A stretch of DNA of 64,000 bases from Chloroflexota bacterium (GCA_034189655.1 JAXHUE010000003.1:35969-99968); one strand, 5' to 3'; positions 21,679-61,428 are shown, counted from the first letter of the stretch. Notes: a model not told the origin generated them from the sequence alone. Made by a program: numbers and translations.

Positions 21679-21902
21679 AATTCTCACTGCCCCGTAGTAT
21701 AGTGAGTAGGGCCCGCCAGGGGCTTACCCCGCACACACGTTTTAGCTATGAGAGAGAGCGCCAGCCAGGTTCCTCGCCCGTCCGCACTCGTAGCGGGTAC
21801 CCATTTTCTATTCAGGCCATCTTCCATCGCAGCGCGGGCATGTCGGCGGCCTTACAGGCTCTTGCCGGGCGAGGTACCGGGAAGACACGGAGGGTCTAGA
21901 GT

Positions 21903-22760
21903 ATGTACCGTATAGTGCACCGAGAGGACCTGGTCCCCAACATACACCTGTTCGACGTTGAGGCCCCGCTGGTGGCACGCAAAGGCCAGGCGGGGCAGTT
22001 CGTCATCGTGAGGGTGGGCGAGACCGGGGAGCGCATACCGCTCACCATCGCCGACTGGGACCGGGAGGCCGGCACCATCACCATCGTGTTCATGGAGGTA
22101 GGTGCCACCACGCGCAAGCTGGCCACCCTGGGCGTCGGCGACCACCTCGATAACTTCGTGGGGCCCCTGGGGTTGCCCACCCACATCGAGCGCTTCGGCA
22201 CGGTGTGCTGTGTCGGCGGCGGTGTGGGGGTGGCCCCCATCATGCCCATCGCACGGACGCTCAAGGAGGCCGGGAACCGGGTGGTCTCCATCATGGGGGC
22301 CAGGAACAGAGACCTCCTCTTCTGGGAGGACCGCCTCCGTGAGGTGAGTGACGAGCTCATCGTGACCACCGACGATGGCTCCTATGCCCGCAAGGGGGTG
22401 GTCACCGAGCCCCTCAAGGAGCTCCTGGAGGGGGACGAGCGCATAGACCTGGTGATCGCCATCGGGCCGGTGGTGATGATGAAGTTCTGCTGCCGCACCA
22501 CAGAGCCCTTCGGGGTAAAGACCATGGTGAGCCTAAACCCCATCATGGTAGACGGTACCGGGATGTGCGGCTGCTGCCGCGTCGAGGTAGGTGGCGATAC
22601 CAGGTTCACCTGCGTCGATGGCCCCGACTTCGACGGCCACCAGGTGGACTGGGACCTCCTGCTCTCCCGGCAGCGGATATACCTTGACGAGGAGCGAAAG
22701 TCCGTGGAGCACTGGGAGCACCAGTGCCAGTCCCTAGGCCGAGAGGTACGTCATGGCTAA
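21903..22760 (+). CDS. nfnA: NfnA/SudB-type ferredoxin:NADP oxidoreductase small subunit (FAD/NAD-binding, 2Fe-2S)
   Basis: Dihydroorotate dehydrogenase electron-transfer-subunit-like fold. C-terminal Cys cluster GMCGCCRV...FTCVDGP. GGAGGG RBS. Followed by a GltD-like partner. Confidence 0.75.
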   Translation: MYRIVHREDLVPNIHLFDVEAPLVARKGQAGQFVIVRVGETGERIPLTIADWDREAGTITIVFMEVGATTRKLATLGVGDHLDNFVGPLGLPTHIERFGTVCCVGGGVGVAPIMPIARTLKEAGNRVVSIMGARNRDLLFWEDRLREVSDELIVTTDDGSYARKGVVTEPLKELLEGDERIDLVIAIGPVVMMKFCCRTTEPFGVKTMVSLNPIMVDGTGMCGCCRVEVGGDTRFTCVDGPDFDGHQVDWDLLLSRQRIYLDEERKSVEHWEHQCQSLGREVRHG

Positions 22761-27400: not shown

Positions 27401-28536
27401 AGCCTGATCCCCTCCTCCTCGGCCTCCTCAACCTCCCACTCGCTGGCCGGCATCTCGGCGCGAGAGCGGCGGTAGACGATGGTGACCTCCTCGGCGCCCA
27501 TGCGCAGCGCGGTGCGGGCGGCGTCGATGGCGGTGTTGCCGCCCCCGACGACCGCTACCCGCCGCCCCACCTCCATGGGCTGGCCCAGGGCGCAGGCGCG
27601 GAGGAAATCGGTGCCCGGCAGCACCCCCTCCAGCTCCTCCCCCTCCACCCTCATGCGCTGGCTCTTGTGGGCGCCGATGGCGAGGAAGCAGGCGTCGTAG
27701 CCCTCCTGGAGCAGGCCCTGGAGGGTGATGTCCCGGCCCAGGGCGCACCCCGTCCTGATGTCGACGCCCATCTGGGCGATGGCCGCTATCTCCCGGTCGA
27801 GGATATCCTTGGGCAGGCGGTAGTCCGGTATCCCGTAGCGCAGCATCCCCCCCGGCTGGGGCAGGGCCTCGAAGACGACGACGGCGTGCCCCATGCGCGC
27901 CAGGTAGAAGGCGCAGGCCAGCCCCGCCGGCCCCGCGCCGACCACGGCCACGCGGCGGCCGCTGTCCGGCCCCCGGGGCGGGACGTACATAGGCTCCGAG
28001 GAGAACAGGTCATAGTCGGCGGCGGCGCGCTTTAGGTGGCAGATGGCCAGGGGCTCGTCCACCAGGTTACGGCGGCACGCCTCCTCGCAGGGGTGGGGGC
28101 ACACCCTGCCCAGGACGGCGGGCATGGGCACCCGCTCCTTGATGAGGGCGACGGCGTCCCGCAGGCGCCCCCTGGCGATCAAGTGTATGTAGCCCTGGAC
28201 GTCTATCCCCGCGGGGCAGGCCAGCTCACAGGGGGCGGTGCAGTCGCCGTAGTGGGAGGCCAGGAGCTCCTCCAGGCGGCGCTTCCTGGCGCTGCGCACC
28301 CTCTCGCTGTCGGTCTGCACCGTCATGCCCGGCCAGATGGTGGTGGCGCAGCTGGGCACCATGCCGTGACCGGCCACCTCGACGGTGCATATCAGGCAGC
28401 CGCCCAGCGGCTCCAGGTGGTCGTCGTGGCACAGGGTGGGGATGGGGATGCCGCTCGCGCGGCAGACCTCCAGGATGGTCTCGTGGGCCTCGGCCCGTAG
28501 CTCTCTCCCGTTTACGGTAATGCTTACCTCGGTCAC
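24469..28536 (-). CDS. fdhA: Formate dehydrogenase catalytic (alpha) subunit fused to N-terminal 2Fe-2S ferredoxin and GltD-like NAD(P)H/FAD domain (1355 aa), Cys-type (non-seleno)
   Basis: N-term 2Fe-2S (CHDDHLEPLGGCLICTV). GltD-like domain (RRVAVVGAGPAGLACAFYLARMGH). MopB N-terminal 4Fe-4S (CPYCGVGCS). Fdh active-site region NVDHCARLCHAPSVSGL with Cys at the Sec/Cys position and AMGITQHSHGTDN. Long opposite-strand ORF (25606..28035) is a shadow. Confidence 0.8.
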   Translation of the reverse strand: MTEVSITVNGRELRAEAHETILEVCRASGIPIPTLCHDDHLEPLGGCLICTVEVAGHGMVPSCATTIWPGMTVQTDSERVRSARKRRLEELLASHYGDCTAPCELACPAGIDVQGYIHLIARGRLRDAVALIKERVPMPAVLGRVCPHPCEEACRRNLVDEPLAICHLKRAAADYDLFSSEPMYVPPRGPDSGRRVAVVGAGPAGLACAFYLARMGHAVVVFEALPQPGGMLRYGIPDYRLPKDILDREIAAIAQMGVDIRTGCALGRDITLQGLLQEGYDACFLAIGAHKSQRMRVEGEELEGVLPGTDFLRACALGQPMEVGRRVAVVGGGNTAIDAARTALRMGAEEVTIVYRRSRAEMPASEWEVEEAEEEGIRLHFLAAPTTVNGRNGRVASLSCTRMALGEPDASGRPRPEPIPGSEFTVPVDSVIAAIGQGPDISFSADGLQIGRGDVIVADEETLQTDIEGVFAGGDAVTGPARAVDAMAAGRKAAISIDRYLRGEPLADATKPFNWRKGELDELGGEEFATIERQPRRAMPRLRPDERQGNFQEIERGYTQDLAQKEAQRCLACGCGAVESCTLRHLAADYGVSPSLAREAGYHYPVDSSHPFVEIDANKCIMCARCARTCLSVQGVGAWSFAYRVAVPPGARSLADTTCESCGLCIASCPVGALVSKGSRPPLAEVKTVCPYCGVGCSLYLGVVGNTIVDVRGDPESPVNRGKTCVKGRFGIADFVSHPERLTTPLVRKAGGLVPASWDEALELIASRLPQYRGERFALIASARCTNEENYLLQKFARAAMGTNNVDHCARLCHAPSVSGLAQSFGSGAMTNSIAEIGQARCIFAIGTNTTASHPIIGLEIKDAVRRGAALIVANPRHIDLCRFATVWLQQRPGSDVALLMGMMRVIVEQGLIDKQFIEERCENYAEFRESLEWFDAERVEQLTGVPQERVAEAARLYAEGSPATILYAMGITQHSHGTDNVIATANLAMLTGNVGRPSTGVNPLRGQNNVQGACDMGALPNVYPGYQGVADPNLQVKFESAWDVTLNPAPGLTLTEMVDAAYRGEVRAIYLVGENPLLSEPDATHVEQALKNLDFLVVQDIFLSETAQLADVVLPAASFAEKDGTFTNTERRVQRVRRAIDPVGEALPDWQIVCRIAQRMGAGGFDFSHPSQVFDEIAGLSPAYGGISYQRLEEGGLAWPCPFDDHPGTPILHTQLFSRGLGRFIPLTYRPPLEEPSSDYPLVLTTERLLNQYHTGTMTRRVAGLNQIRGQELVEINPADAERLGIGGGDRVRVASRRGEVFAHARVTDGSPPGVVSMSFHFTESRTNIVTNPGLDPVAKIPELKVAAVRVERA

Positions 28537-28674
28537 CTGGGCAGTCCTCCTTAGCTCTGTAGCGCTGGGGATACGCTAGAGGTGGCCATGGTATATCTGG
28601 ACCCTCGGCGATGATTATAAAGAAAAGGGGGCCCAGGGTCAAACCTCCCTCCAGGTGGAGAGTGCCTCACTGTT

Positions 28675-31615: not shown

Positions 31616-33307
31616 GTGCCCATCAAGGTGCTAGAGCATGACATGGTCTCCCGCATCGCCGCCGGCGAGGTAGTGGAGCGCCCCGCCTCCGTGGTCAAGG
31701 AGCTCATCGAGAACTCGCTCGATGCCGGTGCCACCGCCGTCTCCGTCGAGGTACGTGGTGGGGGGGTGAGCCTCATCCGGGTGAGCGATAACGGTGTCGG
31801 CATCCCCGCCCCCGAGCTCCCCCTCGCCTTCCAGCGCCACGCCACCAGCAAGGTAGAGACCCCCCAGGACCTGGCCGCCATCGCCACCCTGGGCTTTCGC
31901 GGCGAGGCGCTGCCCAGCATCGCCGCCTGCGCCGAGGTAGAGGTGGTGACCCGCACCCCGGGCGAGGTAGCGGGGGCCTTCGTAAGGCTGCTGGGAGGTG
32001 TCGTCGTCGAGGAGGGCGGGCGTGGCTCGCCCCAGGGGACCGTGGTGACCGTGCACCACCTCTTCCGCGACCATCCCGCCCGCCTGAAGTTCCTGAAGCC
32101 TGCCGCCACCGAGAGCGGTCACATCAGCCACATCGTGGGCCAGTATGCCCTGGCCTTCCCCGAGGTGCGCTTCACCCTCACCGTTGACGGCCGCCGCGCC
32201 CTGGTGACGGCGGGGAGCGGTCGGTTGGGCGATGTGCTGGTGGAGGTCTACGGGGCAGACATCGCCGGTGCGATGGTGCCCGTAGTCGAGCGAGACGGAG
32301 TGCCGCGGGTGACCGGCCACGTGAGCCGGCCCGAGCTGACCCGCTCCAGCCGCAGTCATCTGTCATTTTTCGTAAATCGTCGCTTTGTGAGGAGCCGCGT
32401 GTGCGTCCGTGCTGTGGAGGAGGCCTATCGCGGGCTGCTGATGACGGGGAGGTACCCCGTTGCCGTGCTCACCGTGTGGCTGCCCCGCGAGGAGGTAGAT
32501 GTCAACGTGCACCCGGCCAAGGTCGAGGTCAAGTTCCGCAGCGAGAGAGAGGTCTTCGAGGTCGTGCAGCGAGCGGTGCGGGAGGCCCTGGTGGAGGAGA
32601 TGGCCGTTCCCGCGATGAGGGGCGCCCCCCGCACCCCTGCCCCGCCCCTCCCGCCCACCCGCCGCCCCTCCCCCCTGGCGGCGGCCCAGGGGCCGCCGCC
32701 CGCAGCCCCTGCCGGCGCCGAGTTGGGTTTACGCCTGCCCATCCTGCGTGTGCTGGGCCAGCTATTACAGACCTACATTGTCGCCGAGGGCCCTGACGGC
32801 CTGTACCTCGTTGACCAGCATGCCGCTCACGAGCGCATCCTCTTCGAGCGAGTGCGCTCCCAGCGAGAGAGGGGAGAGGTAGAGGTACAGGGGTTGCTCG
32901 AGCCGCTGGCTGTTGAGCTCATGCCGCGGCAGGCAGAGACACTGTTGTCCGAGGGGGAGTGTCTTGCGTCGTATGGTTTCGCCGTGGAGCCGTTTGGCGA
33001 GAGGACGTGCCTGGTGCGCGCCGTGCCCGCGGCGCTTGCCCGTGGTGAGGTGGTCACGGCCCTGGTCGACATCCTGGATGCCCTGGGCCAGGTAGGGGAG
33101 CCTGATACGAGAGAGGAGCGGATAGCCCAGTCCCTGGCGTGCCATAGTGCGGTACGTGCCGGGCAGGCACTGAGTATGGAGGAGATGCGCCACCTGCTGG
33201 GGGAGCTAGAGCTGGCGCATCTCCCTCACACCTGTCCTCATGGCAGACCCACCATGGTCTGCACGAGCATAGCGCAGCTAGAGCGTGATTTTGGGCGCTC
33301 CCTATAG
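31616..33307 (+). CDS. mutL: DNA mismatch repair protein MutL
   Basis: GHKL ATPase N-terminus IAAGEVVERPASVVKELIENSLDAGAT...SDNGVGI. GTG start at 31616 after GAGAGAGG; the ORF-track start at 31424 overlaps the small ORF out of context. Confidence 0.9.
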   Translation: MPIKVLEHDMVSRIAAGEVVERPASVVKELIENSLDAGATAVSVEVRGGGVSLIRVSDNGVGIPAPELPLAFQRHATSKVETPQDLAAIATLGFRGEALPSIAACAEVEVVTRTPGEVAGAFVRLLGGVVVEEGGRGSPQGTVVTVHHLFRDHPARLKFLKPAATESGHISHIVGQYALAFPEVRFTLTVDGRRALVTAGSGRLGDVLVEVYGADIAGAMVPVVERDGVPRVTGHVSRPELTRSSRSHLSFFVNRRFVRSRVCVRAVEEAYRGLLMTGRYPVAVLTVWLPREEVDVNVHPAKVEVKFRSEREVFEVVQRAVREALVEEMAVPAMRGAPRTPAPPLPPTRRPSPLAAAQGPPPAAPAGAELGLRLPILRVLGQLLQTYIVAEGPDGLYLVDQHAAHERILFERVRSQRERGEVEVQGLLEPLAVELMPRQAETLLSEGECLASYGFAVEPFGERTCLVRAVPAALARGEVVTALVDILDALGQVGEPDTREERIAQSLACHSAVRAGQALSMEEMRHLLGELELAHLPHTCPHGRPTMVCTSIAQLERDFGRSL

Positions 33308-34222
33308 TTGCAGGTAGCTGTGGGCGTAGATGGTCTTGTTCTCCAGCACCCTGATGGTCTTCAAGATATCGCTCTGCATTGGGTCGTTCTTATCGGCCAC
33401 CGAGGGGTCGAACTCCTCGTCGGCGGCGTAGGCATCGTAGAGGGCCAGGTAGAGCTTGCCCTTGGGTGTAGAGCCGTCGCGGCCCTCGATGATGCGGATG
33501 GTCTCCATCATCTCGTCGTCCAGCGGGTCGAGGATGGCCGAGTCCATGCCCGCCCCCATGAGCATGATGAGGAAGACGCGGTTGATGAGGGGTCTTATCT
33601 CGTTGGGGGCCCCGTTGGAGACGTTAGAGAGGCCGCAGGTGGTGTGGAAGGGGGGGTCGCTGATCTGCTTGAAGATACGAGTTGCCTTCACGATCTCTGG
33701 TGCGTGCTCCTGGCAGCCGTTCACCGTGAGCACCAGCGGGTCGAGGTAGACGTTCTCCAGGGGGACCCCGTACTGGTCGACGGCCGGCATCAGGTCTTCA
33801 GAGACGATCTCCACCCGGGCGTCCGAGGTTGCCGGCAGGCCGGTGGCGCGCAGGGTGAGGGCGATGATGTTGGCGTTGTGCTCCACGGCGAGGGGGAAGA
33901 GTACCGCCATGCGCTCCGGGTCGGCGTTGGTGCTATTGATGAGGGGCTTGTGCTTGCACACCTTGAGGCCCGCCTTGATGGCCTCGGCGTTGGTGGTGTC
34001 GAGTGAGAGGGGGACATCGGTCACCTCCTGCACGGCACCTACCAGCCACTCCATCACCTCAGGCCCGTCCTTCTTGCGGGGGCCGATATTGAGCTCCAGG
34101 ATATTGGCGCCCCGCTCTACCTGGCGCGTGGCCACATCCTGGATGAAGCCCTTGTCCCGCTCGTCGATGGCCTCCCTGACCCTCTTGGCCAGGATCTGGA
34201 TGCTTTCCCCGATAACCAGCAT
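33302..34222 (-). CDS. acsE: Methyltetrahydrofolate:corrinoid/iron-sulfur protein methyltransferase (pterin-binding, AcsE/MeTr-like)
   Basis: Pterin-binding (DHPS-like TIM barrel) domain. Last gene of the acs cluster. Confidence 0.7.
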   Translation of the reverse strand: MLVIGESIQILAKRVREAIDERDKGFIQDVATRQVERGANILELNIGPRKKDGPEVMEWLVGAVQEVTDVPLSLDTTNAEAIKAGLKVCKHKPLINSTNADPERMAVLFPLAVEHNANIIALTLRATGLPATSDARVEIVSEDLMPAVDQYGVPLENVYLDPLVLTVNGCQEHAPEIVKATRIFKQISDPPFHTTCGLSNVSNGAPNEIRPLINRVFLIMLMGAGMDSAILDPLDDEMMETIRIIEGRDGSTPKGKLYLALYDAYAADEEFDPSVADKNDPMQSDILKTIRVLENKTIYAHSYLQL

Positions 34223-34274
34223 GCTTGTCCTCCTTTCTTAAAAGACCGCAAAGTAATGGGCGGGGCCATATCCG

Positions 34275-35033
34275 CTATAGCAGGCCCAGCTCCTCCGCGA
34301 CGGCGGCCACTGCCTGCCTGACTGGCGAGTCGGTGGCGAGCTCGGTGAGTGGGGCTCCCACCTGCTCCAGCGCAGCCAGGGCCGGGTCCTCGGGGAGGGT
34401 AGTGATGAGCTCCAGGCCGGCCTCCGTGATGGCCTGCTGGATCTGGGGGCTCAGGCCGTCGCCCACGCGGTTCACCATCAGGACGACGCGCTCCACGTGA
34501 GTCCTCATCTCGGTGATGAGCTCCTTGGTGCGGATAGCGGCGGAGATCCCCCTCATCGTTGGGTCAGAGACGATGAGGAGGACATCCACGTCGCGCGTTG
34601 TCTGGCGGCTGATGTGCTCCATGCCTGCCTCGGAGTCGATGACCACGAACTGGTAGTTGCTCCCCAGGCGGTCGATGGAGTGGCGCAGCATATTGTTGGC
34701 GGCGCAGTAGCACCCTGGGCCCTCGGGGCGTCCCATGGCGAGCAGGTCCACCCCCTTGGACTCCACCAGTGCCTCGAATATCTTCATCTCCAGGTAGTCC
34801 GGTTTGGATATCCCGCCCTCCAGGCGTCCCTTGCTTGCCAGCTTGGCCATGTCCTCCCGCACCCGGCCCACGGTCTCGTCCAATGGGAGGCCCAGGGCCA
34901 TGTGGAGGTTAGAGCTGGGGTCGCCGTCGATGGCGAGCACTGCACCCTTCTCCTTGAGCATTGTGATGAGCAGGGCAGAGATGGTGGTCTTGCCCGTGCC
35001 CCCCTTTCCTACCACGGCTATAGTCTTGGTCAT
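34275..35033 (-). CDS. cooC: CooC-family Ni-insertion ATPase (CODH/ACS maturation factor)
   Basis: Deviant Walker A AVVGKGGTGKTT. MinD/ParA-like. CooC-type CxC motif region (GPGCYCAANN). Confidence 0.8.
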   Translation of the reverse strand: MTKTIAVVGKGGTGKTTISALLITMLKEKGAVLAIDGDPSSNLHMALGLPLDETVGRVREDMAKLASKGRLEGGISKPDYLEMKIFEALVESKGVDLLAMGRPEGPGCYCAANNMLRHSIDRLGSNYQFVVIDSEAGMEHISRQTTRDVDVLLIVSDPTMRGISAAIRTKELITEMRTHVERVVLMVNRVGDGLSPQIQQAITEAGLELITTLPEDPALAALEQVGAPLTELATDSPVRQAVAAVAEELGLL

Positions 35034-36475
35034 CGCTCGGTATCACCCCGATTCTCACTATACTTGATGAAGCGGCTTATGGCAATGGCGGCCCGGGCCA
35101 CGGTGGGGAACACCGGGAAGCCGGCGTCTAAGCACCTCTCCTGGAGCGTGAGGAAGGTCTGCCACGCCTCCATGGCACCCGCGGTGCGCAGCACCACGGC
35201 GATGGGCTTATCGGTCTCCCTGCCGGCGCGGATGACGTTCTCGGCCACGTGCTCCATGAGGTTGTAGCCCGTGGGCTGGCGGGCGCTGAAGTCGATGCCC
35301 AGGTGGACGATGAGGAAGTCGATCTGGGGGCACCGGGCCACGGTGCTTATGGTGCGGTAGAAGTCCTCCGGGTTGAAGATGAGCAGGGAGTCCACCGGGT
35401 TGGCCACGCTGGAGCCGGCGTCGGGTGTGAAGCGGCGCAGCTCCTCCCGCACCTCTGGTGGCAGAGGTGGGACAGAGAGGCCGGCGAGGCCGCAGTCGTC
35501 CGTCGCCTGGACGCTGGCGCCGCCGCCCACGCCGACGACCCCGGCGTTGCGACCCCGGGGCAGGCCCATGCGCAGGAAGCACTGGAGCACGTCGGCCATC
35601 TCCTCCAGGCTGGCCACCCCTATCACGCCCATCTGGCGACAGAGGGCGTCCCATATCGCCACCGCCCCTGCCAGAGAGCCGGTGTGCGAGGCCACCGCCC
35701 TGGCGCCGCTCTCCGTTCTTCCCCCTTTGAGCAGTATCACCGGCTTTGTGGCGGAGGCCTCGCGGAGCGCCCGTATGAAGCCGGGGCCGTTGCGCACCCC
35801 CTCGATGTAGCCGGTGATGATCCCGGTCTCCGGGTCGTGGGCCAGGTACTCCATGAAGTCGGTCTCGTTCAAGTCGCAGGCATTGCCGTAGCTCACCACC
35901 TTGCTGAAGCGGATGCCGCGGAGGCGGGCGGCGTTGGTGATATCGGTGGCGTTGCCCCCGCTCTGGGAGATGAAGGCCACCGGGCCGCTCTCCTTGGGCA
36001 GGCCCTGTGCGTTGAACACCAGGCCGCTCCGCGGGCAGTAGACGCCTACGCAGTTGGGGCCGATGATGCGCAGGTTGCCCTTCCTGGCGATGCTCACCAT
36101 CTCCTGCTCCAGCTTGGCCCCCTCCGCGAGGCCGGTCTCGGAGAATCCGGCGGTGAAGAGCTGGAGCGTCTTGACCCCCATGTCCACGCAGTCCCGGACC
36201 ATCTGGATGACGTGCTGTGCCGGGATGTTGGAGATGGCGTAGTCGATGGGTGGCGGGGCGTGCCTTATGCTGGGGTATGTCTTTATCCCCAGCACCTCTT
36301 CCCGGTTGGGGTTGATGGGGTAAATGTTCCCCTCGAAGCCGAGCTCCATGATCCCCTTCAAGTAGCCGTAGCCGAACTTCACCGGGTCGCTGGTGGCCCC
36401 TACTACCGCCACCGAGCGGGGGTGGAACACGTCTTCCAGGTCTGGTCTCCCCTTGCCATTAGTCATGCTGTACAT
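35030..36475 (-). CDS. CoA-binding domain protein (ADP-forming acetyl-CoA synthetase alpha-like / succinyl-CoA synthetase-like)
   Basis: N-terminal CoA-binding Rossmann (RSVAVVGATSDPVKFGY), ligase-CoA domain, 481 aa. Embedded in the acs cluster. Confidence 0.65.
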   Translation of the reverse strand: MYSMTNGKGRPDLEDVFHPRSVAVVGATSDPVKFGYGYLKGIMELGFEGNIYPINPNREEVLGIKTYPSIRHAPPPIDYAISNIPAQHVIQMVRDCVDMGVKTLQLFTAGFSETGLAEGAKLEQEMVSIARKGNLRIIGPNCVGVYCPRSGLVFNAQGLPKESGPVAFISQSGGNATDITNAARLRGIRFSKVVSYGNACDLNETDFMEYLAHDPETGIITGYIEGVRNGPGFIRALREASATKPVILLKGGRTESGARAVASHTGSLAGAVAIWDALCRQMGVIGVASLEEMADVLQCFLRMGLPRGRNAGVVGVGGGASVQATDDCGLAGLSVPPLPPEVREELRRFTPDAGSSVANPVDSLLIFNPEDFYRTISTVARCPQIDFLIVHLGIDFSARQPTGYNLMEHVAENVIRAGRETDKPIAVVLRTAGAMEAWQTFLTLQERCLDAGFPVFPTVARAAIAISRFIKYSENRGDTER

Positions 36476-36525
36476 CCTCGCTGTGCCGGGAGCTGCCGTG
36501 GCCCCTCCTCCGGGCCTGGTGCCCC

Positions 36526-38478
36526 CTACTTCGTTTCTCTTGCCTCCAGGAGCGCCTTCACCGAGGGGAAGCTGCCTATATCGGTGTGGGGCAGGAAGAG
36601 GGCGGCGGTGAACTGGTCCATGAAGGAGCCATCGGCGATGAGCTCCAGGTAGGTGAGCGTGTCCGCGACCTCCTCCCCCTTGGCCCGGGCGTACTTTGAG
36701 AGGAGGACGTTGTCGGCCCCCCAGGCCGAGGTGTTGCCCAGGAAGCGGAATCGCTCCCAGGGCAGGTCGGGGAGCAGCCCGATCTGGATGGACTGCTCCA
36801 CGTTGATGTGCTGTCCGAACGCGCCGCCGATGAGCACCTCCTCGACGTCGGAGAGGGGGATGCCGATGCTCTTGGCCATGATGGTGATGCCGGCATAGAT
36901 GGCGGCCTTGGCGCGGACGATGTTATCGATATCGACGCTGGTGAGCACTATGTCCTCGCCGCTGCCCGACTCCCGGGCCCAGGCCAGGACGAACTCCGGG
37001 CCGTGGTCTCCCCTGCGGGCGCGGCTCCGCTTTTTCCCCATCACCCCCTCCACGAAGGGGATGTTGATGCGGCCCGCCTTGTCGATGACGCCGGTGATGA
37101 GCATCTCGGCCAGTGCCGCTATCATCCCGGAGCCGCAGATGCCCAGGGGTGGGCCGCCGCCGATGACCTTGAGGGACGGCTCCAGCGTCGTGGAGCTGAT
37201 GGTGACGTTCTCGATGGCCCCGTCCACGGCGCGCATGCCGCAGCGCACCCCGGCCCCCTCGAAGGCGGGGCCGGCGCTACAGGCGCAGGTCACCATCCAG
37301 TCGCTGTTGCCCAGGGCTATCTCCCCGTTGGTGCCCACGTCGAGGAAGAGGGTGAGCTGCTCGGCCTGGAACATGCACGAGCTGAGCACCCCGGCGGTGA
37401 TGTCGCCGCCGACGTAGGCGGCGACGGCGGGTAGACAGTACACCCGTGCCTCGGGGTTAATGGCGATGCCGAGCTCGGTGGCGGTCGTCAGTGGGAAGTG
37501 GCTGGCGGTGGGGACGTAGGGCTCCTCGCGGATGTGGCGGGGATCGAGCCCCAGGAAGAGGTGTATCATGGTGGTGTTCCCCGCCACCGCCATGTCCTGG
37601 ATGTCGGTGGTGGCGAAGCCGTGCTGCCGTGCCAGCTCCTCCAGGAGCTCGTTCACGGTGCCCACCACCAGCCCCTGGAGCTCGGCCAGCCCCCCGCGGT
37701 GGCGCTCGGCGTAGATGATGCGCGAGATGACGTCCTCGCCTTTGACCACCTGCTTGTTGCGCTGCGACACGCGGCCCAGGGAGCGGCCGTTACGCAGGTC
37801 GAGGAGGTCGACCACCACGTTGGTGGTGCCGATGTCTACGGCCGCTGCGAGCAAGGGCCCCCGTGCCCGTCCCGGGCGCAGGTCTATTAAGCGGGCCGTC
37901 TCCCCCTCGAGGGCCAGGGTGGCGGTGACCCGCCACTGGGCCTGGCGCAGGGAGGCGGCAAGCCTCTGCATCAGGGGCAGCCCGACGTGGAACTCGTCGA
38001 TATCGGCCTTCTTCTTAAGCGCCATGCGCAGCCGCTCCAGGTCGGTGGCGTTGTCCTCCAGTGACGGCGGCGTGATATCCAGGTAGACCTGGCGCACCAG
38101 CGGGTAGTGCGGCCAGTCGCAGGATACAGAGAGGGCGGCCCGCTCCGCGGCCTCCTCGCTCACCACCCGCTCCCGCTCCTTGCGCGGGGGCACCGACACC
38201 GTGGCGTCCCCGCTCACCCTGGCGGTGCAGGAGAGCACCCAGCCCTCCTCGCGCTGCCCCGCGGTGAGGTGGGGATTGGGAGGCATGGAGACCTGGCCCT
38301 CCTCCACCCTCACGATGCAGCGCCCGCAGCGGCCCTGGCCGCCACAGGGGGTATCGATGGCCACCCCGGCGGCTACAGCGGCATCCAGGAGCAGGGCCCC
38401 GGCGGCGACCTGGGCGCTCTTCCCCTGCGGCCGGAAGGTGATGGTAGAGGTATTTCCGTCGGCGCTCAAAGGTGCCAT
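36526..38478 (-). CDS. Corrinoid activation/regeneration protein RACo (ASKHA-fold ATPase with N-terminal 2Fe-2S ferredoxin)
   Basis: N-terminal plant-type ferredoxin Cys pattern (CGGQGRCGRC...C). ASKHA/actin-like fold motifs (AVDIGTTNVV, DVGTNGEIAL). Confidence 0.7.
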   Translation of the reverse strand: MAPLSADGNTSTITFRPQGKSAQVAAGALLLDAAVAAGVAIDTPCGGQGRCGRCIVRVEEGQVSMPPNPHLTAGQREEGWVLSCTARVSGDATVSVPPRKERERVVSEEAAERAALSVSCDWPHYPLVRQVYLDITPPSLEDNATDLERLRMALKKKADIDEFHVGLPLMQRLAASLRQAQWRVTATLALEGETARLIDLRPGRARGPLLAAAVDIGTTNVVVDLLDLRNGRSLGRVSQRNKQVVKGEDVISRIIYAERHRGGLAELQGLVVGTVNELLEELARQHGFATTDIQDMAVAGNTTMIHLFLGLDPRHIREEPYVPTASHFPLTTATELGIAINPEARVYCLPAVAAYVGGDITAGVLSSCMFQAEQLTLFLDVGTNGEIALGNSDWMVTCACSAGPAFEGAGVRCGMRAVDGAIENVTISSTTLEPSLKVIGGGPPLGICGSGMIAALAEMLITGVIDKAGRINIPFVEGVMGKKRSRARRGDHGPEFVLAWARESGSGEDIVLTSVDIDNIVRAKAAIYAGITIMAKSIGIPLSDVEEVLIGGAFGQHINVEQSIQIGLLPDLPWERFRFLGNTSAWGADNVLLSKYARAKGEEVADTLTYLELIADGSFMDQFTAALFLPHTDIGSFPSVKALLEARETK

Positions 38479-38619
38479 CTCCTGTACAGGCCCGGCCCCG
38501 CGGCGGAAGACAGACGCCCCCTCACGTCATCGACATCGAAGAGGTGCCTGCGCAGCGAGGGCCCAGGCACATATGCCCGGGCCCATGCCTTTACCCACCC
38601 GGTGCCGTGCCGGCGGGCG

Positions 38620-39975
38620 CTAGTTGGTCCACTGCTGCTTGAGATAGCCACCCACGTCCACCGCCTCGCGGGGGCCTACCATGACCGTCCAGTCGGGGAG
38701 TTCCTCCTCGAGCTCTCCCCTGAGCACGGCGACGTGCCCGGGGAGGATGACCTTCTTGTGGCTCACGCTCTCGGCCACGTTGAACTCCTTGACCGTCTTG
38801 GCGATCTTCTCGGCGTCGAACTTGCCGGCGGCCCACGCCGTGAGCACGGAGAGGCCCTCGGTATCGCACACCAGGAGCCACGAGGGGAAGCCGCTGGACT
38901 CGAGCTCGCCGGCGATGGAGAAGTAGGTGAGAGAGAAGTTGGTGGTGACGCACAGCGGGCTGGTAGCCTTGGGGGTGCCTATCTCGTACATCCCTGGCGA
39001 GAGCTGGATGGGCTTCTGCGGGTCGGTGTAGATGTTCAGGCGCAGCGTGAGCAGCGGATATACCATGGCCGGGGAGAAGTGGTCGAGCACGATGAGGCTG
39101 GCGTACTTGGATATCTGCTGCCCGGCGAGGACGGCCTCATCCTCCTCCGTGGAGGTGGCCTCACCGGGGAAGGCGATGATGGGGAACCCCAGTGGCTGGA
39201 AGCTCTTCTTGAGCGCCATGCGCCTGATCTGGGTCAGCGTAGAGAGAGACTCTCCGAAGTCGCGGGCGCCGGGGTCGAGGACGATGTCTTCCACACCCTT
39301 GTCCATGACCTGCTCGGTGAGCGCGGCCAGCTCATCGAGGCCCCCGGCCTCACTGACCGCCAGCGGGCACTTGAACTGGGTGGCCAGCCCCGCCATCTGC
39401 TCCCAGTTCTCCTTGGTGGCGGTGTAGATGAGCGGCCTTGTCTGGCTATCGGCCTTGGCCAGGGCCTGCTCCATGGCCGTGGGATTGCTTGACATAAGGA
39501 TTAAGGGCAGCTTGGTCTTGGCCCGCACCGCCGCCACGCACGCGGCAAAGGTGGCGGCATCGCCGGAGGCGTTCTCGATGGCGAAGCCGTCCATGGAGAT
39601 CTCGAGCCCCACGCGCTCCACGTTGTAGCCGGCGACGGCATCGACGCGGCTGGCGATGGCATCGGCGGGGTCGGAGTCCTTCAAGCGCACCACGATCCCG
39701 GGCTGGTGGTAGAAGGTCTTCTCGTGGCGGAACATGACCACCTCGTTGCCCACCTCTATCTTCTTATCGTCTCCACCGACGGTGACCAGGCGGATGGGGG
39801 GCCGGGAGGCCGCCTCCAGGGCCTGCGTGGCCTCTTCGGTGACGTAGGGGCACTGCGCCAGCTCCACGCTCTTGGCCGCCAGCTTCATGGCGAAGGCGAG
39901 GCAGGTGGGGAAGCCGCACTCCTTGCAGTTGGTCTTGGGGAGGTACTTGTATATCTCTATTCCGGTAAGTGCCAT
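38620..39975 (-). CDS. acsC: Corrinoid iron-sulfur protein large subunit (AcsC/CdhE, 4Fe-4S + TIM barrel + B12-binding)
   Basis: N-terminal CxxCxxxxC...C ([4Fe-4S]: KTNCKECGFPTCLAFAMKLA...CPY). ~450 aa. Confidence 0.8.
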   Translation of the reverse strand: MALTGIEIYKYLPKTNCKECGFPTCLAFAMKLAAKSVELAQCPYVTEEATQALEAASRPPIRLVTVGGDDKKIEVGNEVVMFRHEKTFYHQPGIVVRLKDSDPADAIASRVDAVAGYNVERVGLEISMDGFAIENASGDAATFAACVAAVRAKTKLPLILMSSNPTAMEQALAKADSQTRPLIYTATKENWEQMAGLATQFKCPLAVSEAGGLDELAALTEQVMDKGVEDIVLDPGARDFGESLSTLTQIRRMALKKSFQPLGFPIIAFPGEATSTEEDEAVLAGQQISKYASLIVLDHFSPAMVYPLLTLRLNIYTDPQKPIQLSPGMYEIGTPKATSPLCVTTNFSLTYFSIAGELESSGFPSWLLVCDTEGLSVLTAWAAGKFDAEKIAKTVKEFNVAESVSHKKVILPGHVAVLRGELEEELPDWTVMVGPREAVDVGGYLKQQWTN

Positions 39976-39990
39976 TTCGTGCTCCCTCCT

Positions 39991-40956
39991 CTACCGGGCA
40001 CTCTGGCCCATGAGATTATCGAGTACCGCTTTGGTGCTCTCCACTGTCCTGGGGTGGCGTAGTACCACGATATCGGCGCCGGAGTAGAGCAACTGGGTGG
40101 CGGTGATCTTCTCCCACAGCAGCGACCGCTCATCGTTGTCGCCCCATGTATCGGGCACGCCCTCGACGACCTTGGACTCCTTCTGTCGCCACGACTCCTC
40201 GCCCACGTTGCAGATCATGGGCATCGCCGTCATGTTGTCGCCGCCCAGCGCCGAGAGGCGTAGCCGCTCCATCACTGAGTAGGTGTACTCCAGGCCATAG
40301 CCCAGGCTCCCCGTCGTCGGGTCCATGAGGATGGAGTTAGGGGTCAGGCCGACATCGCAGAGCAGGACGTTTAACTGCTTGGCCAGATTGATCTCGATGG
40401 GGCTCTTGGCGATGGCTACGTGGCCGTCGGCGATGCAGGCCGCGGCAATGGTGCGGTGGTTCTTCTCTAAGCAGCTGCCCAGGGCGATACGCTGCCCCCT
40501 GGCCGCGTCCGAGGCTGCCACCAGCACCTCGTTGTCCTTCTCTGCCACCTCGGGCCCGATGACGATTACCGGGATGTCCACTGCCGAGAGCACCTTCTCC
40601 ACGCTCTTCTTGGCATCGTCGGCGCTGGTGTTGCCCTCCTCGGGGTGGGCACTTCTCAGGTACAGCGCGACGATATCGGCACCGAACTCAACCGCCTTCT
40701 TGGCCCAGGCCCCGGGGTCGCCAAGGCAATCGCCCCACACCGAGACCAGGGAGGGCGGCCAGTCATTGGGCTCGCGGTCCTGTACCTCGATGGCGACCAG
40801 CGGCCTGTGGGGCATCTGGCCCTCGAAGTGGAGGAAGGGCAGGGTGGACGCGCCGCCTAAGACTACGCTCTTCCTACCGTTCCCTCCCAGGGTCACCTCA
40901 TGCACCTTGCCGGTCCACTTCTCAATGGGCACTTCCACTGTGGACATAGCGGTCAC
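39991..40956 (-). CDS. acsD: Corrinoid iron-sulfur protein small subunit (AcsD/CdhD)
   Basis: TIM-barrel DHPS-like fold protein of ~320 aa, positioned between acsB and acsC as in canonical acs operons. Confidence 0.7.
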   Translation of the reverse strand: MTAMSTVEVPIEKWTGKVHEVTLGGNGRKSVVLGGASTLPFLHFEGQMPHRPLVAIEVQDREPNDWPPSLVSVWGDCLGDPGAWAKKAVEFGADIVALYLRSAHPEEGNTSADDAKKSVEKVLSAVDIPVIVIGPEVAEKDNEVLVAASDAARGQRIALGSCLEKNHRTIAAACIADGHVAIAKSPIEINLAKQLNVLLCDVGLTPNSILMDPTTGSLGYGLEYTYSVMERLRLSALGGDNMTAMPMICNVGEESWRQKESKVVEGVPDTWGDNDERSLLWEKITATQLLYSGADIVVLRHPRTVESTKAVLDNLMGQSAR

Positions 40957-41038
40957 TCCTTTCTAAAGACCTGTCATAAAACAAGGGCCGAGGAACGACC
41001 CTTGTCTATGGGTGTTTCCTCCGGGCGACGGCCCGTGT

Positions 41039-43264
41039 TTACATAATAGGCTCCATGGTGAGGGCGGGGTGCCCCTTCTCCTCGAGGAAGGGGAGCATCT
41101 CCTCTACCGTGGTGGCGACGGTGCCGTCGGCCATCTTATCGATGAGGTCGGGAACGCCCTCGCGTTCGCAGGCCGCCTGGATCTCCTCTGCGAACTCCTC
41201 CTTGACGTTCTTGGAGAGCCACACCACCCGCTTGATGCCGCCCTCTACCGGGATGAACTTCTTGGAGGTGACGTAGAGCTTGCTGTGTCCCATCATGCCC
41301 GGCGTCTGCAGGCCGCCTCCCACCATGCCCATGAGCGTGGTGAAGGTCATGCCGCAGGGGGTCATGCTGTAGTCGTCGCGGGACACGATCATGACCCCGT
41401 TGGCCTCGGGGATGACCACCATGACGCACTCGCAGCAGCCGCAGGTGGTGAGCGGGGCGTCCATGAGCGAGTAGATGGTGAAGCGATCTATGGACCGGTT
41501 AGAGTTCTCGTAGACGAACTGGTTCACCCCTTCCCACTCTCCCAGATGCTCGCTTATGATCTTGCCCTTGGCCACTGGCTGGTTGGGGCCGGTGGGCTTA
41601 ATCTCGTACGCGGCGCGGCAGTCCAACCAGGAGTAGGCCCCGCACAGCCCGGTGCGCTCCGGGTTGATGACGCACACGTGGTTGGGGGCGAAGGACTGGC
41701 ACAGGGTGCAGCTGTAGTAGGTGTCTACAGCCTCGTCGGTTAAGCCCTGGATCCGCGCCTCGCGCTCCCGGAAGATGTGGCGTGCCTGCTCCATGAGCTC
41801 GTTTACCTTGTCGAGATCGGTGTAGAGCGTGATCTGCACCTTGTCCACGATGGCGCCGAAGTCGTTGTGCAGGTTGGCGTGGAGGATGCTGCCCAGGTGC
41901 TGGATGGTGAAGCCGCGCTGCACCGCGCCCTTGGAGAAGCGGATCCAGGTGATGTCGCGCTGCCCGATGTGCTGGATCCCCTCGGCGCCGTTGATGAAGT
42001 GGTGTATCTGGCGCTCCAGGACGGGCTCGAAGTCCTTCTGCATCTTGCGCCCGGCCACGTGGACCACTATGCCCAGGGGCAGCTTGCCCCCTTCCGCCAC
42101 GGTGTCGATGTCGGGCCCCACCAGGGTGATCTTGCCGTCCTCTACCTCGTCCATGTCCTTCTGGGTGAGCCACTCGAAGCACACGCCGCCCTTGCCGCCG
42201 AACTCCACCTGGAGGCTGTCCTTGCGCACTACCTCGCCCTCGAAGGCGGGGCCGTAGGCCACCGGGATGGGCACCTTGGCGATCTTGACCTTGATGCCGC
42301 GCACCTCGATGCAGCGCTGCACTAGCCTCTCGGCGCGCTCCATATCGTCGGCGCCGGGGATATCGTCGAAGGGCATGCTCACCACGTGCTCGTACCTGGT
42401 GACGCCGGTGGGCAGGATGTTGGGTATGGTGGTGTCGGCAATGACCGGGAAGCCGTAGTTGATGGCCCCGGCGGCGGCGGCGTACTTCAGGTCGTCGACC
42501 GGCCCCAGGGCCAGGACGAAGGCAAAGCAGCGGAACTTGTTGTAGAGCAGGTTGGCCCGTGCGTCGCCCGGCTTGAAGCCGCCGAAGCTGATGGCGGCCC
42601 TGGTGGCGTAGCCCAAGGCGTATATCGCCGAGATGGTATCGGAGCCGAAGGGCACGGTGAAGGTGTTGTAGCCCAGCTCCACGCCCTCCTCCAGCAACTG
42701 GTCGACGATGCTGCGGCCGCCGCTGTTCGCAGAGGAGAGAAAGACGAGCTGGCCCTTTGACTGCAGCTCGCGCACTATCTTGACCGCGACCTCGTTGCTC
42801 TTGGCGGCGCCGACCAGTGCGGCGAACCCGGGCATGCTGCCGTCGACCATCTGGATGCCCCAGGCGCGCATCTGCACGTCGTCAATGGGCCCGTTGAAGG
42901 TAAAGCCGTTGCGCGCTTCGGGCTGTTCCCCCCTGGCAAAACGAACGCCCTCGATGGTCTCGAAGGCGTAGAGGGTAGCCATGCCGGCGTCGAGCGTCTC
43001 TCCGAGGTAGGGCAGCCACAGGTTCTCACTGGGCACCGGTGGCAGCAGGCTCCTGGCGTGCTCCAGGGGCCATGTCAGGTCGCCGATCTTCTCTACCTTG
43101 TGGCCAGTGAGCCCGTAGATGACCGGCAGGTAGTATGCGGTATGGGGGAAAGCGACAGGGGTATCAGGTCCAATAGTCTCCAGGGCGTCCTTCAACACCC
43201 TGTCTGCTTCGTCGACTGCGGCGTGGGCACCCCGTATCGCTGAGGTGGCAATAAATCTCGACAT
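41039..43264 (-). CDS. acsB: Acetyl-CoA synthase catalytic subunit (A-cluster protein AcsB/CdhC)
   Basis: 741 aa with the A-cluster Cys motifs (CGCCEC in ...TTCGCCECVM..., plus upstream CTLCQSF...C). AcsB length and organisation. Confidence 0.85.
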   Translation of the reverse strand: MSRFIATSAIRGAHAAVDEADRVLKDALETIGPDTPVAFPHTAYYLPVIYGLTGHKVEKIGDLTWPLEHARSLLPPVPSENLWLPYLGETLDAGMATLYAFETIEGVRFARGEQPEARNGFTFNGPIDDVQMRAWGIQMVDGSMPGFAALVGAAKSNEVAVKIVRELQSKGQLVFLSSANSGGRSIVDQLLEEGVELGYNTFTVPFGSDTISAIYALGYATRAAISFGGFKPGDARANLLYNKFRCFAFVLALGPVDDLKYAAAAGAINYGFPVIADTTIPNILPTGVTRYEHVVSMPFDDIPGADDMERAERLVQRCIEVRGIKVKIAKVPIPVAYGPAFEGEVVRKDSLQVEFGGKGGVCFEWLTQKDMDEVEDGKITLVGPDIDTVAEGGKLPLGIVVHVAGRKMQKDFEPVLERQIHHFINGAEGIQHIGQRDITWIRFSKGAVQRGFTIQHLGSILHANLHNDFGAIVDKVQITLYTDLDKVNELMEQARHIFREREARIQGLTDEAVDTYYSCTLCQSFAPNHVCVINPERTGLCGAYSWLDCRAAYEIKPTGPNQPVAKGKIISEHLGEWEGVNQFVYENSNRSIDRFTIYSLMDAPLTTCGCCECVMVVIPEANGVMIVSRDDYSMTPCGMTFTTLMGMVGGGLQTPGMMGHSKLYVTSKKFIPVEGGIKRVVWLSKNVKEEFAEEIQAACEREGVPDLIDKMADGTVATTVEEMLPFLEEKGHPALTMEPIM

Positions 43265-43290
43265 TCCTTCCGCCTCCTAATTTGCGAATG

Positions 43291-43794
43291 CTAATACTTT
43301 CGGAAGTCTCCTGACATAGGGGCATCGATGGGGTTAGTCTCCAGCATACGTTCCGCCACCTCGAAGGTGGGGTTGGTCGTCGCCGGCTCGTTCCACGGCG
43401 ACGCTGGCAGGGAATCGACCCCTCTCATGATATCCCTGGCCTGGGCCAGACGCGATTCATCGGCGTGGACGCTTAGCAAGATGCCGCCCACTGAGACACT
43501 GAAATCGTAGTAGAGAATGGCCTCCTCGGGGAGCCCCAGCAGGCCGCCTAAGGCCAGGGCAGTCTCAGCTTCGTCGCCCTTGGGCAGGGATGTGGCCATG
43601 GCACCCAGGGCCACGGCGCTTCCCGCTTCGGGCAGTTGCACCTTTGTGGGGTTGGTGCCGAAGCCCTCTGCCCTCTTCGCCTCGTGGACCAGGACGCCGA
43701 TCTCATCGGCCTTGAAGCCATTCGCCTGTAGCTCCTCCACCGCCCTCTTGGCTACCAGGGGGTCTTTATAGAGCCTCGCGTGTGCCTTTGGCAT
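43291..43794 (-). CDS. YflT/general-stress-protein-17M-like domain protein
   Basis: ATG 43794 after GGAGGG. Gly/Ala-rich amphipathic central segment typical of YflT domain. Low confidence on family. Confidence 0.35.
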   Translation of the reverse strand: MPKAHARLYKDPLVAKRAVEELQANGFKADEIGVLVHEAKRAEGFGTNPTKVQLPEAGSAVALGAMATSLPKGDEAETALALGGLLGLPEEAILYYDFSVSVGGILLSVHADESRLAQARDIMRGVDSLPASPWNEPATTNPTFEVAERMLETNPIDAPMSGDFRKY

Positions 43795-44034
43795 CGAGCC
43801 CTCCTTTCTCACGGTCAGAGATAAATAGAGCACCTCTTACCAGAGCGAGCCTTTACGCTCCGGGCAGAGGCGCACCGATTCGAGGAACACTAATGGCAGC
43901 CATGGTGAGCGTAGTTTCCTGGACTTATTTTATCATGCACAGGTAACCCACGTCAAGGATGGATGCGGCGCGCGGGGGCGGTAGCAGACCCCTCGGCAGG
44001 GCAGGGCAGGGCCGCGATGGGGCTGGAAAAGAGT

Positions 44035-44377
44035 TGGTGGAGACGGGGGAGAGTCGAACTCCCCGTCCAGAGGGGGCACAATCAGGATATGCTACAGGCT
44101 TAGTCGGCTCCTCGCTCTTGCCTGGCCGTCCTCTGCCGACCGAGCCGCGGCCAGACCAGCCGATTGTTCTTATTCAGCCCTTACCGGCGTGGGGGCTGCT
44201 GCACCTCGACTTCGCTCACCTATCCCGCCCATCGAGGGAGGCGAGGGGGTGTGTCTGCCTTTCTTATGAGGCGTAGACGTAGTTGTCGGTTATTTTTTGC
44301 CACTTGTTTAGCGAGGTGAGTGGCACCTCGGCCTGCAATCCTGTCACGCTCCTCCCCTGTCGAAACCACTCGTCCCC
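44035..44377 (-). ncRNA. ssrA: tmRNA (ssrA), ~343 nt, encoded CCA end
   Basis: Minus-strand 5' end GGGGACGAGUGGUUUCGACAGGGG and 3' end GGGGAGUUCGACUCUCCCCCGUCUCCACCA (T-arm plus CCA). Acceptor stem 7 bp with the G3-U wobble characteristic of tRNA-Ala-like tmRNA. Immediately downstream of smpB on the same strand. Confidence 0.85.
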
Positions 44378-55076: not shown

Positions 55077-55089
55077 AGCTGCTACCTCA

Positions 55090-61427: not shown

Positions 61428-61428
61428 G

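Follow-up and report, generated by a model that had tools for sequence, protein, structure and literature searches.

The question raised by this locus is whether an acetyl-CoA synthase (ACS, the product of acsB) that is encoded without a neighboring nickel carbon monoxide dehydrogenase (CODH, encoded by acsA or cooS) operates without that enzyme, or whether the CODH gene lies elsewhere in the genome. The locus is part of a 64-kb stretch of Chloroflexota DNA (GCA_034189655.1, JAXHUE010000003.1:35969-99968; GC content 67.3%), and this whole stretch is called the window here. A first-pass annotation had placed acsB, acsD, acsC, RACo, a CoA-binding gene, cooC and acsE contiguously on the minus strand, with no cooS/acsA in the cluster or elsewhere in the 64 kb, and had concluded that AcsB operates without CODH, as in Dehalococcoidia. 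The gene identities, coordinates and contiguity were borne out by Pfam and NCBIfam calls, and the absence of cooS/acsA by tblastn and assignment of the open reading frames (ORFs). However, the conclusion that AcsB works without CODH was not supported: the N-terminal domain of AcsB (PF18537 plus the Rossmann part), the carbon monoxide (CO) alcove, a CooC1-type maturase and acsE have all been kept, and K00198 (cooS/acsA) occurs in metagenome-assembled genomes (MAGs) of a relative. We estimate with a probability of about 0.6 that the operon is part of an ordinary Wood-Ljungdahl module with an unlinked CODH gene; since the genome most likely still has a CODH gene at another place, the pathway is probably a normal one and not CODH-free.

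The operon and its gene content

A single minus-strand operon was found at 33302-43794, with eight consecutive reading frames and intergenic gaps of -4 to 141 nt. Gene calls were scored with Pfam and NCBIfam models against curated cut-offs, and the genes are listed here in operon order:

43291-43794, minus strand, YflT-like leader gene, 167 aa (PF11181, 28.6-28.9 bits, marginal to the cut-off of 26.2)
41039-43264, minus strand, acsB, acetyl-CoA synthase, 741 aa (NF040764, 993.6 bits, cut-off 800)
39991-40956, minus strand, acsD, corrinoid iron-sulfur protein (CoFeSP) small subunit (NF003376, 387.4 bits, cut-off 280)
38620-39975, minus strand, acsC, large subunit of CoFeSP (NF003195, 586.9 bits, cut-off 306; PF04060, PF03599)
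36526-38478, minus strand, RACo/AcsV, ATP-dependent reductive activator of the corrinoid protein (Fer2, RACo_linker, Raco_middle, RACo_C_ter)
35030-36475, minus strand, ACD-alpha-like CoA-binding protein (PF13607, PF13380, PF19045)
34275-35033, minus strand, cooC paralogue, probably of AcsF type (CbiA/AAA_31-type Pfam matches; 71 bits to CooC1, PDB 3KJE)
33302-34222, minus strand, acsE, methyltetrahydrofolate (methyl-THF):CoFeSP methyltransferase (NF005719, 267.5 bits, cut-off 259; PF00809)

The N-terminal Fe-S motif of AcsC was present (PF04060, 51 bits), and all four Pfam domains of RACo were strong, though NF040756 gave 655 bits, under its cut-off of 800. AcsE cleared NF005719 narrowly but failed the stricter NF040758 (213.9 against a cut-off of 370), and acsE ends the operon in most loci of the acsA-less clade described below that are long enough to show that position. 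The operon thus encodes everything for methyl-THF + CO + CoA <-> acetyl-CoA, apart from the CO2/CO step.

The leader gene has the ribosome-binding site AAGGAGG 6 nt 5' of its ATG, and the ribosome-binding site of acsB is also strong. The genes smpB and ssrA flank the operon on one side and convergent mutL/mutS on the other, and one promoter-like site was found 5' of the leader gene:

43927-43956, minus strand, promoter-like site (TTGACG, 18-nt spacer, TAAAAT, TG-extended; 10 of 12 consensus matches)

On the strength of its consensus match this site, between the transfer-messenger RNA (tmRNA) gene and the leader gene, is a candidate operon promoter. The Rfam search of the region before the operon returned no riboswitch or leader RNA, and the tmRNA was its sole match. 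The tmRNA gene (44035-44377, minus strand; RF00023, 155 bits) lies directly 3' of smpB and just 5' of the acs promoter region.

Absence of a CODH gene from the window and proposed history of the arrangement

Three AcsA proteins encoded 5' of acsB in related loci, verified as members of the Prismane family (532-540 bits), were searched against the 64-kb window with tblastn, and no CODH gene was found (best E = 0.009 over 37 aa). ORFs were called by codon-position GC and assigned by Pfam scan or from a precomputed Pfam table of a near-identical contig; no window ORF was a Prismane, MetF, FTHFS or FolD protein, and two ORFs had no Pfam match at all. In Moorella thermoacetica and Carboxydothermus hydrogenoformans the canonical bacterial gene order is cooC-acsA-acsB-acsC-...-acsF-acsD-acsE. 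The window does not have acsA next to acsB as a canonical CODH/ACS operon does; the leader gene, which carries a conserved C-terminal tail (see below), sits 26 nt 5' of acsB. Compared with the canonical system (structures 1MJG/1OAO and 7ZKJ), the window has identical A-cluster and alcove residues and also encodes CoFeSP, AcsE and both CooC types. It differs in that the operon lacks acsA, opens with a small tail-bearing protein and includes RACo and the ACD-alpha-like gene, and in that the CooC1-type gene lies among glycolysis genes at a distance of 11 kb.

The exact AcsB protein is present in metagenome assemblies only. AcsB was also scanned against GTDB, each species being represented by a single genome, which gave 80 relatives. 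Of these, the nearest 52 (66-83% identity) were Dehalococcoidia/Chloroflexota MAGs from sediments, groundwater and crustal fluids, and the next (62-65% identity) were from Anaerolineae, Thermoleophilia and Ardenticatenia. Three close relatives have been placed in GTDB orders E44-bin15, SZUA-161 and JAUVWM01, all in class Dehalococcoidia. Since the closest AcsB relatives are all Dehalococcoidia/Chloroflexota MAGs, the window can be assigned to Dehalococcoidia, and by this measure its source is an uncultured high-GC member of that class, not a foreign lineage carrying a Dehalococcoidia arrangement. The link to Dehalococcoidia drawn in the first-pass annotation therefore holds as a tie of class, but the high GC content that had been singled out there does not mark a foreign host.

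About 50 genomes share the order leader, AcsB, AcsD, AcsC, (RACo), (ACD-alpha), CooC, AcsE, followed by MutL on the opposite strand, and chance juxtaposition of the operon genes is rejected because of this conservation. The leader gene lay 15-90 nt 5' of acsB (283 nt in one case) with no acsA within 10 kb in 49 loci, an acsA-less order common to 49 species-level MAGs. The order leader gene, acsA, acsB was found in 13 loci; nine had acsA with no tail match 5' of it, seven had neither acsA nor the leader gene, and two had too little 5' sequence for judgement. Five of the nine were truncated at the 5' side, and the other four had an HMA protein without the terminal motif. The operon of the window also has counterparts in CP070819.1 (bin1158, a closed chromosome of 2.14 Mb) and CAWKAJ010000002.1 (1.75 Mb), whereas JBAZEO010000001.1 (1.2 Mb) belongs to the clade but has neither acsA nor the leader gene beside acsB. 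Anaerolineae and Thermoleophilia relatives have retained acsA directly 5' of acsB. In a neighbor-joining tree of AcsB, all of the acsA-less, leader-bearing loci formed a single clade together with the window, and the gap between leader gene and acsB held no acsA remnant in the clade loci. This suggests that the ancestral order was leader gene, acsA, acsB and, because there is one AcsB clade and no remnant in the gap, that acsA was cleanly excised a single time, in the common ancestor of what is today a clade of several GTDB orders.

Conservation of AcsB

The three-domain architecture of AcsB is complete (PF18537, PF03598, PF19436), and the protein scored 727 bits against C. hydrogenoformans ACS (PDB 7ZKJ/1RU3). 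All of the A-cluster ligands are present (Cys519, Cys522, Cys531, Cys541 and Cys608-Gly609-Cys610; Moorella reference positions C506, C509, C518, C528 and C595-G596-C597), as are all five residues of the CO alcove (G136, I137, V140, F227 and F525). In Moorella this alcove lies at the end of the tunnel and is formed by G145, I146, V149, F229 and F512, of which at least F229 is needed for productive CO binding and autotrophic growth (PMC11321310). When 53 acsA-less and 23 acsA-linked AcsB proteins were compared, eight of the 12 ligand and alcove positions were invariant. The other four carried 1-4 substitutions each within the acsA-less clade, among them I to V at I146 (four), F to Y at F512 (one) and C to Y at C597 (one), so that, across the 53 clade proteins, five of seven ligand positions in the A-cluster and three of five residues in the alcove did not vary.

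A decaying or non-functional Wood-Ljungdahl remnant left behind by the loss of acsA is effectively refuted by the conservation data. The one thing in its favor is that the usual first enzyme is missing from the operon, whereas all eight reading frames are intact with their ribosome-binding sites preserved, the domains of AcsB are 63-77% identical within the clade, and apart from the four positions with 1-4 substitutions the catalytic residues are conserved over 53 genomes (contig GC of about 45-65%, against 67% in the window).

The domains differed somewhat in how well they were conserved. For the N-terminal helical part, which we take from the Moorella structure to be the part that contacts CODH, mean identity was 0.63 in the acsA-less clade versus 0.71 in the acsA-linked clade, and for the N-terminal Rossmann part it was 0.77 versus 0.83. 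The middle domain (0.72 in both) and the C-terminal domain (0.77 versus 0.76) were alike in the two clades. The N-terminal domain thus appears slightly relaxed in the acsA-less clade, yet clearly under selection. Such conservation would not prove that there is a CODH partner; what fails, as far as these alignments can tell, is the expectation of a degenerate interface. The first-pass annotation had named a full CODH-interaction domain with a partner nearby as evidence against its own reading, and half of this was found, the full N-terminal CODH-contact domain being kept at 63-77% identity.

One further difference was seen in this domain. The AcsB proteins of acsA-linked relatives (L058-L085) have an insertion of 15-25 residues near residues ~118-125 of the window's AcsB that is absent from the acsA-less clade. 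This insertion was considered as a marker of CODH binding and rejected; it is not diagnostic, because C. hydrogenoformans ACS binds CODH and also lacks it.

Two CooC paralogues

The cooC within the operon encodes a P-loop (GKGGTGKT) and a CxC motif (GPGCYCA), scores only the 71 bits listed above against CooC1, and has a conserved position between acsC and acsE in the clade. It is probably of AcsF type, a nickel insertase for the A-cluster. A second paralogue was found 11 kb from the operon:

54297-55076, minus strand, second cooC, CooC1-type (full-length match of 185 bits to CooC1 of C. hydrogenoformans, PDB 3KJE)

This protein has the motifs GKGGVGKT and GGGCMCPE, the latter being the CxC nickel motif, and its gene lies in the neighborhood dxs-(PEMT-like)-(DUF3795)-cooC-pgk-apgM-tpi. 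The gene has been kept across the acsA-less clade, and that neighborhood, or the part of it reached by the contig, recurs in about 40 metagenome contigs, whose GC content is 48-62%. Homologues that are more distant stand beside acsA (L130, L138) or inside an acsA-containing operon (L085). By analogy with C. hydrogenoformans, the CooC1-type paralogue may mature a CODH. It was also observed that within 54297-55758 (minus strand) the CooC1-type ATPase adjoins a Cys-rich DUF3795 protein, between dxs and the glycolysis genes pgk-apgM-tpi.

Is a CODH encoded elsewhere in the genome?

The evidence for a CODH gene elsewhere is circumstantial, and part of it is a direct precedent from a relative in the clade. 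The acsA-less operon of the window, with its ACD-alpha gene, is also found at locus L043 (JAUVWM010000042.1), which lies beside the window in the AcsB tree; judging from its accession-based name, it would be the representative of GTDB species JAUVWM01 sp030604105. Two MAGs of that species that are at least 85% complete (86.4% and 89.4%, with 0-0.2% contamination and sizes of 1.3-1.45 Mb) carry one K00198 each, and in both of them acsB, acsC, acsD and acsE were scored, with metF counts of 0 and 1 (PMC12766754, Tables S6/S7). Additionally, CooS proteins that are not associated with CODH/ACS subunits have been described in other Dehalococcoidia (PMC9751293). Subsurface Chloroflexi related to Dehalococcoidia and likened here by their published description, RBG-2 and RBG-1351, carry the Wood-Ljungdahl pathway; they are acetogenic, their pathway was reported as complete with CODH included, and an ADP-forming acetyl-CoA synthetase has been proposed to yield their ATP from acetyl-CoA (PMC3971608).

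In the proposed model, the Ni-CODH would have been relocated, or replaced by an unlinked cooS, and not lost from the cell. The module would then run in an ordinary Wood-Ljungdahl pathway, in either the reductive/acetogenic or the oxidative direction. AcsB may use its conserved N-terminal domain to dock on the unlinked CODH, or may take free CO through its intact alcove, and the nearby genes for a Cys-type formate dehydrogenase, an NfnAB-like pair and a 2-oxoacid:ferredoxin oxidoreductase could serve the redox and one-carbon (C1) ends.

Several points weigh against an unlinked CODH. Some 50 acs loci, viewed together with up to 10 kb of flanking DNA per side, contained no cooS, and none was seen in the surroundings of ~45 homologues of the second cooC (CooC2) or in the ~4 kb past the right end of the window, where hemerythrin, Rieske, ferritin-like and GMP synthase genes were found. 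The CODH-contacting helical part of AcsB is the less conserved in the acsA-less clade, and a CODH-maturing role for the CooC1-type protein has C. hydrogenoformans as its analogy. The K00198 calls are second-hand, made with GhostKOALA on MAGs preselected for acsA and acsB (PMC12766754), and they belong to a relative whose AcsB is 79% identical, not to the organism of the window. Also, cultured Dehalococcoides and Dehalogenimonas have no CODH and excrete CO (PMC7005905, PMC11334346), and because of these members of the class, loss of CODH instead of relocation stays live for part or all of the clade. The literature on subsurface Dehalococcoidia yielded no clade-resolved statement on cooS beyond Tables S6/S7 of PMC12766754. 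A protein search with a Thermoleophilia AcsA gave 120 listed matches, all of at least 68% identity, and could not reach a possible Dehalococcoidia CooS; the few of its matches that had an organism name were from Thermoleophilia, Anaerolineae or Chloroflexi.

The alternative that follows from loss is an ACS without CODH, in which AcsB cleaves acetyl-CoA, the methyl group passes through CoFeSP and AcsE to THF for methionine and C1 supply, and CO leaves the cell or feeds neighbors. This is the role suggested for Dehalococcoides mccartyi, which belongs to the same class and has genes for AcsB and CoFeSP with no acsA adjacent; it has AcsB and AcsCD without CODH (Zhuang et al. 2014, as reported in PMC7005905 and PMC7918482). 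The class holds the only experimentally established users of a CODH-less ACS (PMC7005905, PMC7918482, PMC11334346). No cooS was found in the window or in the related acs and CooC2 loci examined, the excision of acsA from the operon is clade-wide, the small size of the JAUVWM01 MAGs fits reductive evolution, and the presence of acsE makes the originally proposed methyl-THF route feasible. However, the match to a D. mccartyi-type arrangement that had been put forward for this cluster breaks down at acsE (33302-34222), since the D. mccartyi cluster lacks that gene. The closed D. mccartyi genomes have no acsE, metF or CODH, and there CO is released and the methyl group goes to core-MetE (PMC7005905), whereas in the window acsE and RACo are accompanied by two cooC paralogues, NfnAB-like genes and a formate dehydrogenase of the Cys type. 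The CooC1-type maturase has also been kept under purifying selection, the conserved CO-alcove residues are relevant to CO capture during synthesis (PMC11321310), an apparently competent formate dehydrogenase and NfnAB-like genes adjoin the operon, and K00198 occurs in both high-quality MAGs of a species with the same operon. On balance we consider a CODH-free ACS unlikely, though it is the most serious competitor of an unlinked CODH.

It is also conceivable, but improbable, that the organism has no CODH of its own and scavenges CO, so that external or syntrophic CO and a methyl group derived from formate would be joined to acetyl-CoA by an ACS whose alcove gives it micromolar affinity for CO. 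The monomeric ACS of C. hydrogenoformans is active on free CO (PDB 1RU3 is a monomer), which counts for such a role. So do the intact alcove and A-cluster residues and the adjacent formate dehydrogenase, and the ACD-alpha-like gene of the operon hints at turnover of acetyl-CoA and acetate. Against this, the evidence for an unlinked cooS (the CooC1-type gene and K00198) applies equally here, no independent sign of a CO supply was seen, and the window has no ATP-grasp partner for the ACD-alpha-like protein.

The choice between these readings has consequences beyond this locus. If the clade were truly CODH-free, this large, abundant set of subsurface Dehalococcoidia would on balance produce CO and depend on partners, the oddity of D. 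mccartyi would extend to marine and aquifer sediments, and carbon-flux models would change. If the cooS is instead unlinked, which is the more ordinary case and the one suggested here, marker-gene surveys that judge CODH/ACS by operon context, or call a pathway "incomplete" on the basis of one contig, misclassify these organisms.

The leader gene and its C-terminal peptide

The gene directly 5' of acsB is the leader gene, whose product is identical to NCBI MDY6906882.1, a protein of a "Chloroflexota bacterium" MAG annotated as 'general stress protein'. In the AlphaFold2 model, residues 1-128 had a predicted local distance difference test score (pLDDT) of about 80 and residues 130-167 one of about 50, which predicts a folded YflT-like domain (1-128) followed by a disordered C-terminal tail. 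When 44 orthologues were aligned, the N-terminal region was variable and the tail was near-invariant (sPGF..A.RMs.TNP.DA.MSGDFR(K/R)Y):

43294-43374, minus strand, conserved 27-residue C-terminal peptide, in the window NPTFEVAERMLETNPIDAPMSGDFRKY

A hidden Markov model (HMM) built from the last 34 alignment columns was searched against 17,473 ORFs of the window and related DNA. It matched the leader proteins of the 49 acsA-less loci (L006-L056 range) with 60-75 bits, and it also matched small ORFs that end just 5' of acsA in 13 loci (21-31 bits, E of 1e-7 to 1e-4); the next match was noise (E = 0.39). The acsA-linked leader proteins (L058-L082 range) have an HMA domain (PF00403) in which the CxxC site reads ADHH. 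Over 27 residues the tails of the YflT and HMA types could be aligned gap-free, R, T, G, F, R and Y being invariant, and the family consensus is SP[GW]F-x4-R-[MIV]-[ST]-x-T-[ND]-x2-D-x2-M-[SA]-G-D-F-R-[KR]-Y-COOH. The operons of Anaerolineae, Thermoleophilia and Ardenticatenia MAGs (L058-L085) are the closest acsA-containing ones, with AcsB 62-65% identical and the same tail at the head of 13; they differ in that the leader has an HMA fold and is followed by acsA, and in the AcsB insertion.

An exhaustive profile search with both tail types over 1.84 billion representatives gave 102 proteins, four of which, long and repetitive, were false positives. The motif was at the extreme C-terminus in nearly all of the ~98 clusters that remained. 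Lengths were mainly ~110 aa (HMA type) or 140-173 aa (YflT type), plus fragments, and the database labels were "general stress protein", "CopZ" and "HMA domain-containing protein". Foldseek against the PDB gave no fold match with E below 0.4 for the leader protein model; the tail had no PDB sequence match and its motif no literature match, and no NCBIfam model covers the leader protein. This tail-bearing leader family, which heads acs operons, is previously undescribed and is more novel than the missing acsA.

The first-pass annotation had reported a YflT-like stress protein in the place of acsA 5' of acsB. The gene and its PF11181 match stand, but an unrelated stress gene it is not, because its C-terminal module is common to the proteins that precede acsA in complete operons; on this comparison the leader gene is a member of the operon. 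The tail may dock onto a partner that the two kinds of operon share. We tentatively propose that the leader is an accessory factor of ACS, which seems possible to us without being the favored expectation. The tail would dock AcsB, CoFeSP or the AcsF/CooC ATPases and the N-terminal domain would be exchangeable; the Asp-His-His of the HMA form might make it a nickel carrier, and the YflT form may occupy or regulate the CODH-facing side of AcsB. For enzymologists, this family of about 100 clusters offers a candidate for an ACS partner in assembly or regulation that has been missing.

Two apparent links between the tail and AcsA itself were rejected. The AcsA proteins of Chloroflexi/Actinomycetota relatives (L071, L072, L075 and L079; L058-L085) have a C-terminal extension that reaches past the CODH fold and carries a conserved Y[DN]Pxx[FW]GxSGD motif. 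A relation of the leader tail to this extension (YDPxxFGxSGD) was considered, but the tail HMM misses AcsA and matches separate ORFs 5' of acsA. In Thermoleophilia a long stretch rich in His, Asp and Gly closes the AcsA extension (as in HGHGDGHDHGHGDGHGH) and recalls nickel-storage tails. P0187, in which the N-terminus of AcsA seemed to be fused to the leader tail, was likewise set aside as a local duplication or assembly artefact of the leader gene-acsA junction. On the metagenome contig L158 (789-3336), fhs is followed by an HMA-tail gene, a 98-aa ORF made up of the first ~55 AcsA residues and a duplicated tail, and acsA; either the gene junction has been duplicated in tandem there or the arrangement is an assembly artefact.

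Other pathway genes near the operon

The ACD-alpha-like protein of the operon, so called for its resemblance to the alpha subunit of NDP-forming (ADP-forming) acyl-CoA synthetase, has CoA-binding and phosphohistidine-type domains and gave 390 bits with TIGR02717, under the cut-off of 567. Its gene has the same operon position in L019 and L043. No ATP-grasp (beta) partner was found among the window ORFs by Pfam assignment, and the protein could either pair with an unlinked beta subunit or bind CoA or acetyl-CoA on its own. Two further sets of genes that bear on the pathway were found past the mutL/mutS side:

24469-28575, minus strand, fused formate dehydrogenase, 1368 aa as a stop-to-stop ORF (Pfam; 763 bits to PDB 9T1S)
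21900-24150, plus strand, NfnAB-like pair of a DHODB-type Fe-S/FAD subunit and a GltD-like subunit (Pfam)

The fusion comprises 2Fe-2S, a GltD/NfnB-like FAD-NAD(P) module, 4Fe-4S domains and a molybdopterin FdhA. Its catalytic position reads Cys-His (ARLCHAPSV), in contrast to the selenocysteine of the F420-dependent enzyme PDB 9T1S, and a homologue lies past MutL/MutS in L012, L013, L016 and L042. The fused enzyme is probably an NAD(P)H-linked formate dehydrogenase, and it would supply or consume the C1 unit of the methyl branch. From its domain content, the NfnAB-like pair is a candidate link between ferredoxin and NAD(P)H.

Additional features of the window

At 59927-63768 (minus strand) and on contigs L152/L153, two hemerythrin-like proteins and a rubrerythrin-like protein surround a two-subunit 2-oxoacid:ferredoxin oxidoreductase. 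Past the window (L152/L153), Rieske, ferritin-like and encapsulated-ferritin-like proteins belong to the same oxygen/iron cluster, which suggests that this cluster protects oxygen-sensitive enzymes from oxidative stress.

The region at 8439-11321 (plus strand) encodes a 960-aa predicted secreted or anchored protein with about eight repeats of ~100 aa that are rich in Asp, Cys and Trp. The repeats contain recurring ...W..WDT...DC.Y..R... motifs, the protein had no Pfam match at E <= 1e-8, and the GC content of the region is lower, at 61-64%. Finally, 3059-6744 (plus strand) encodes a NurA nuclease and a HerA-type (DUF87/HAS-barrel) ATPase with a 225-aa ORF that has no Pfam match between them; the NurA/HerA pair is an archaeal-style DNA end-resection module.

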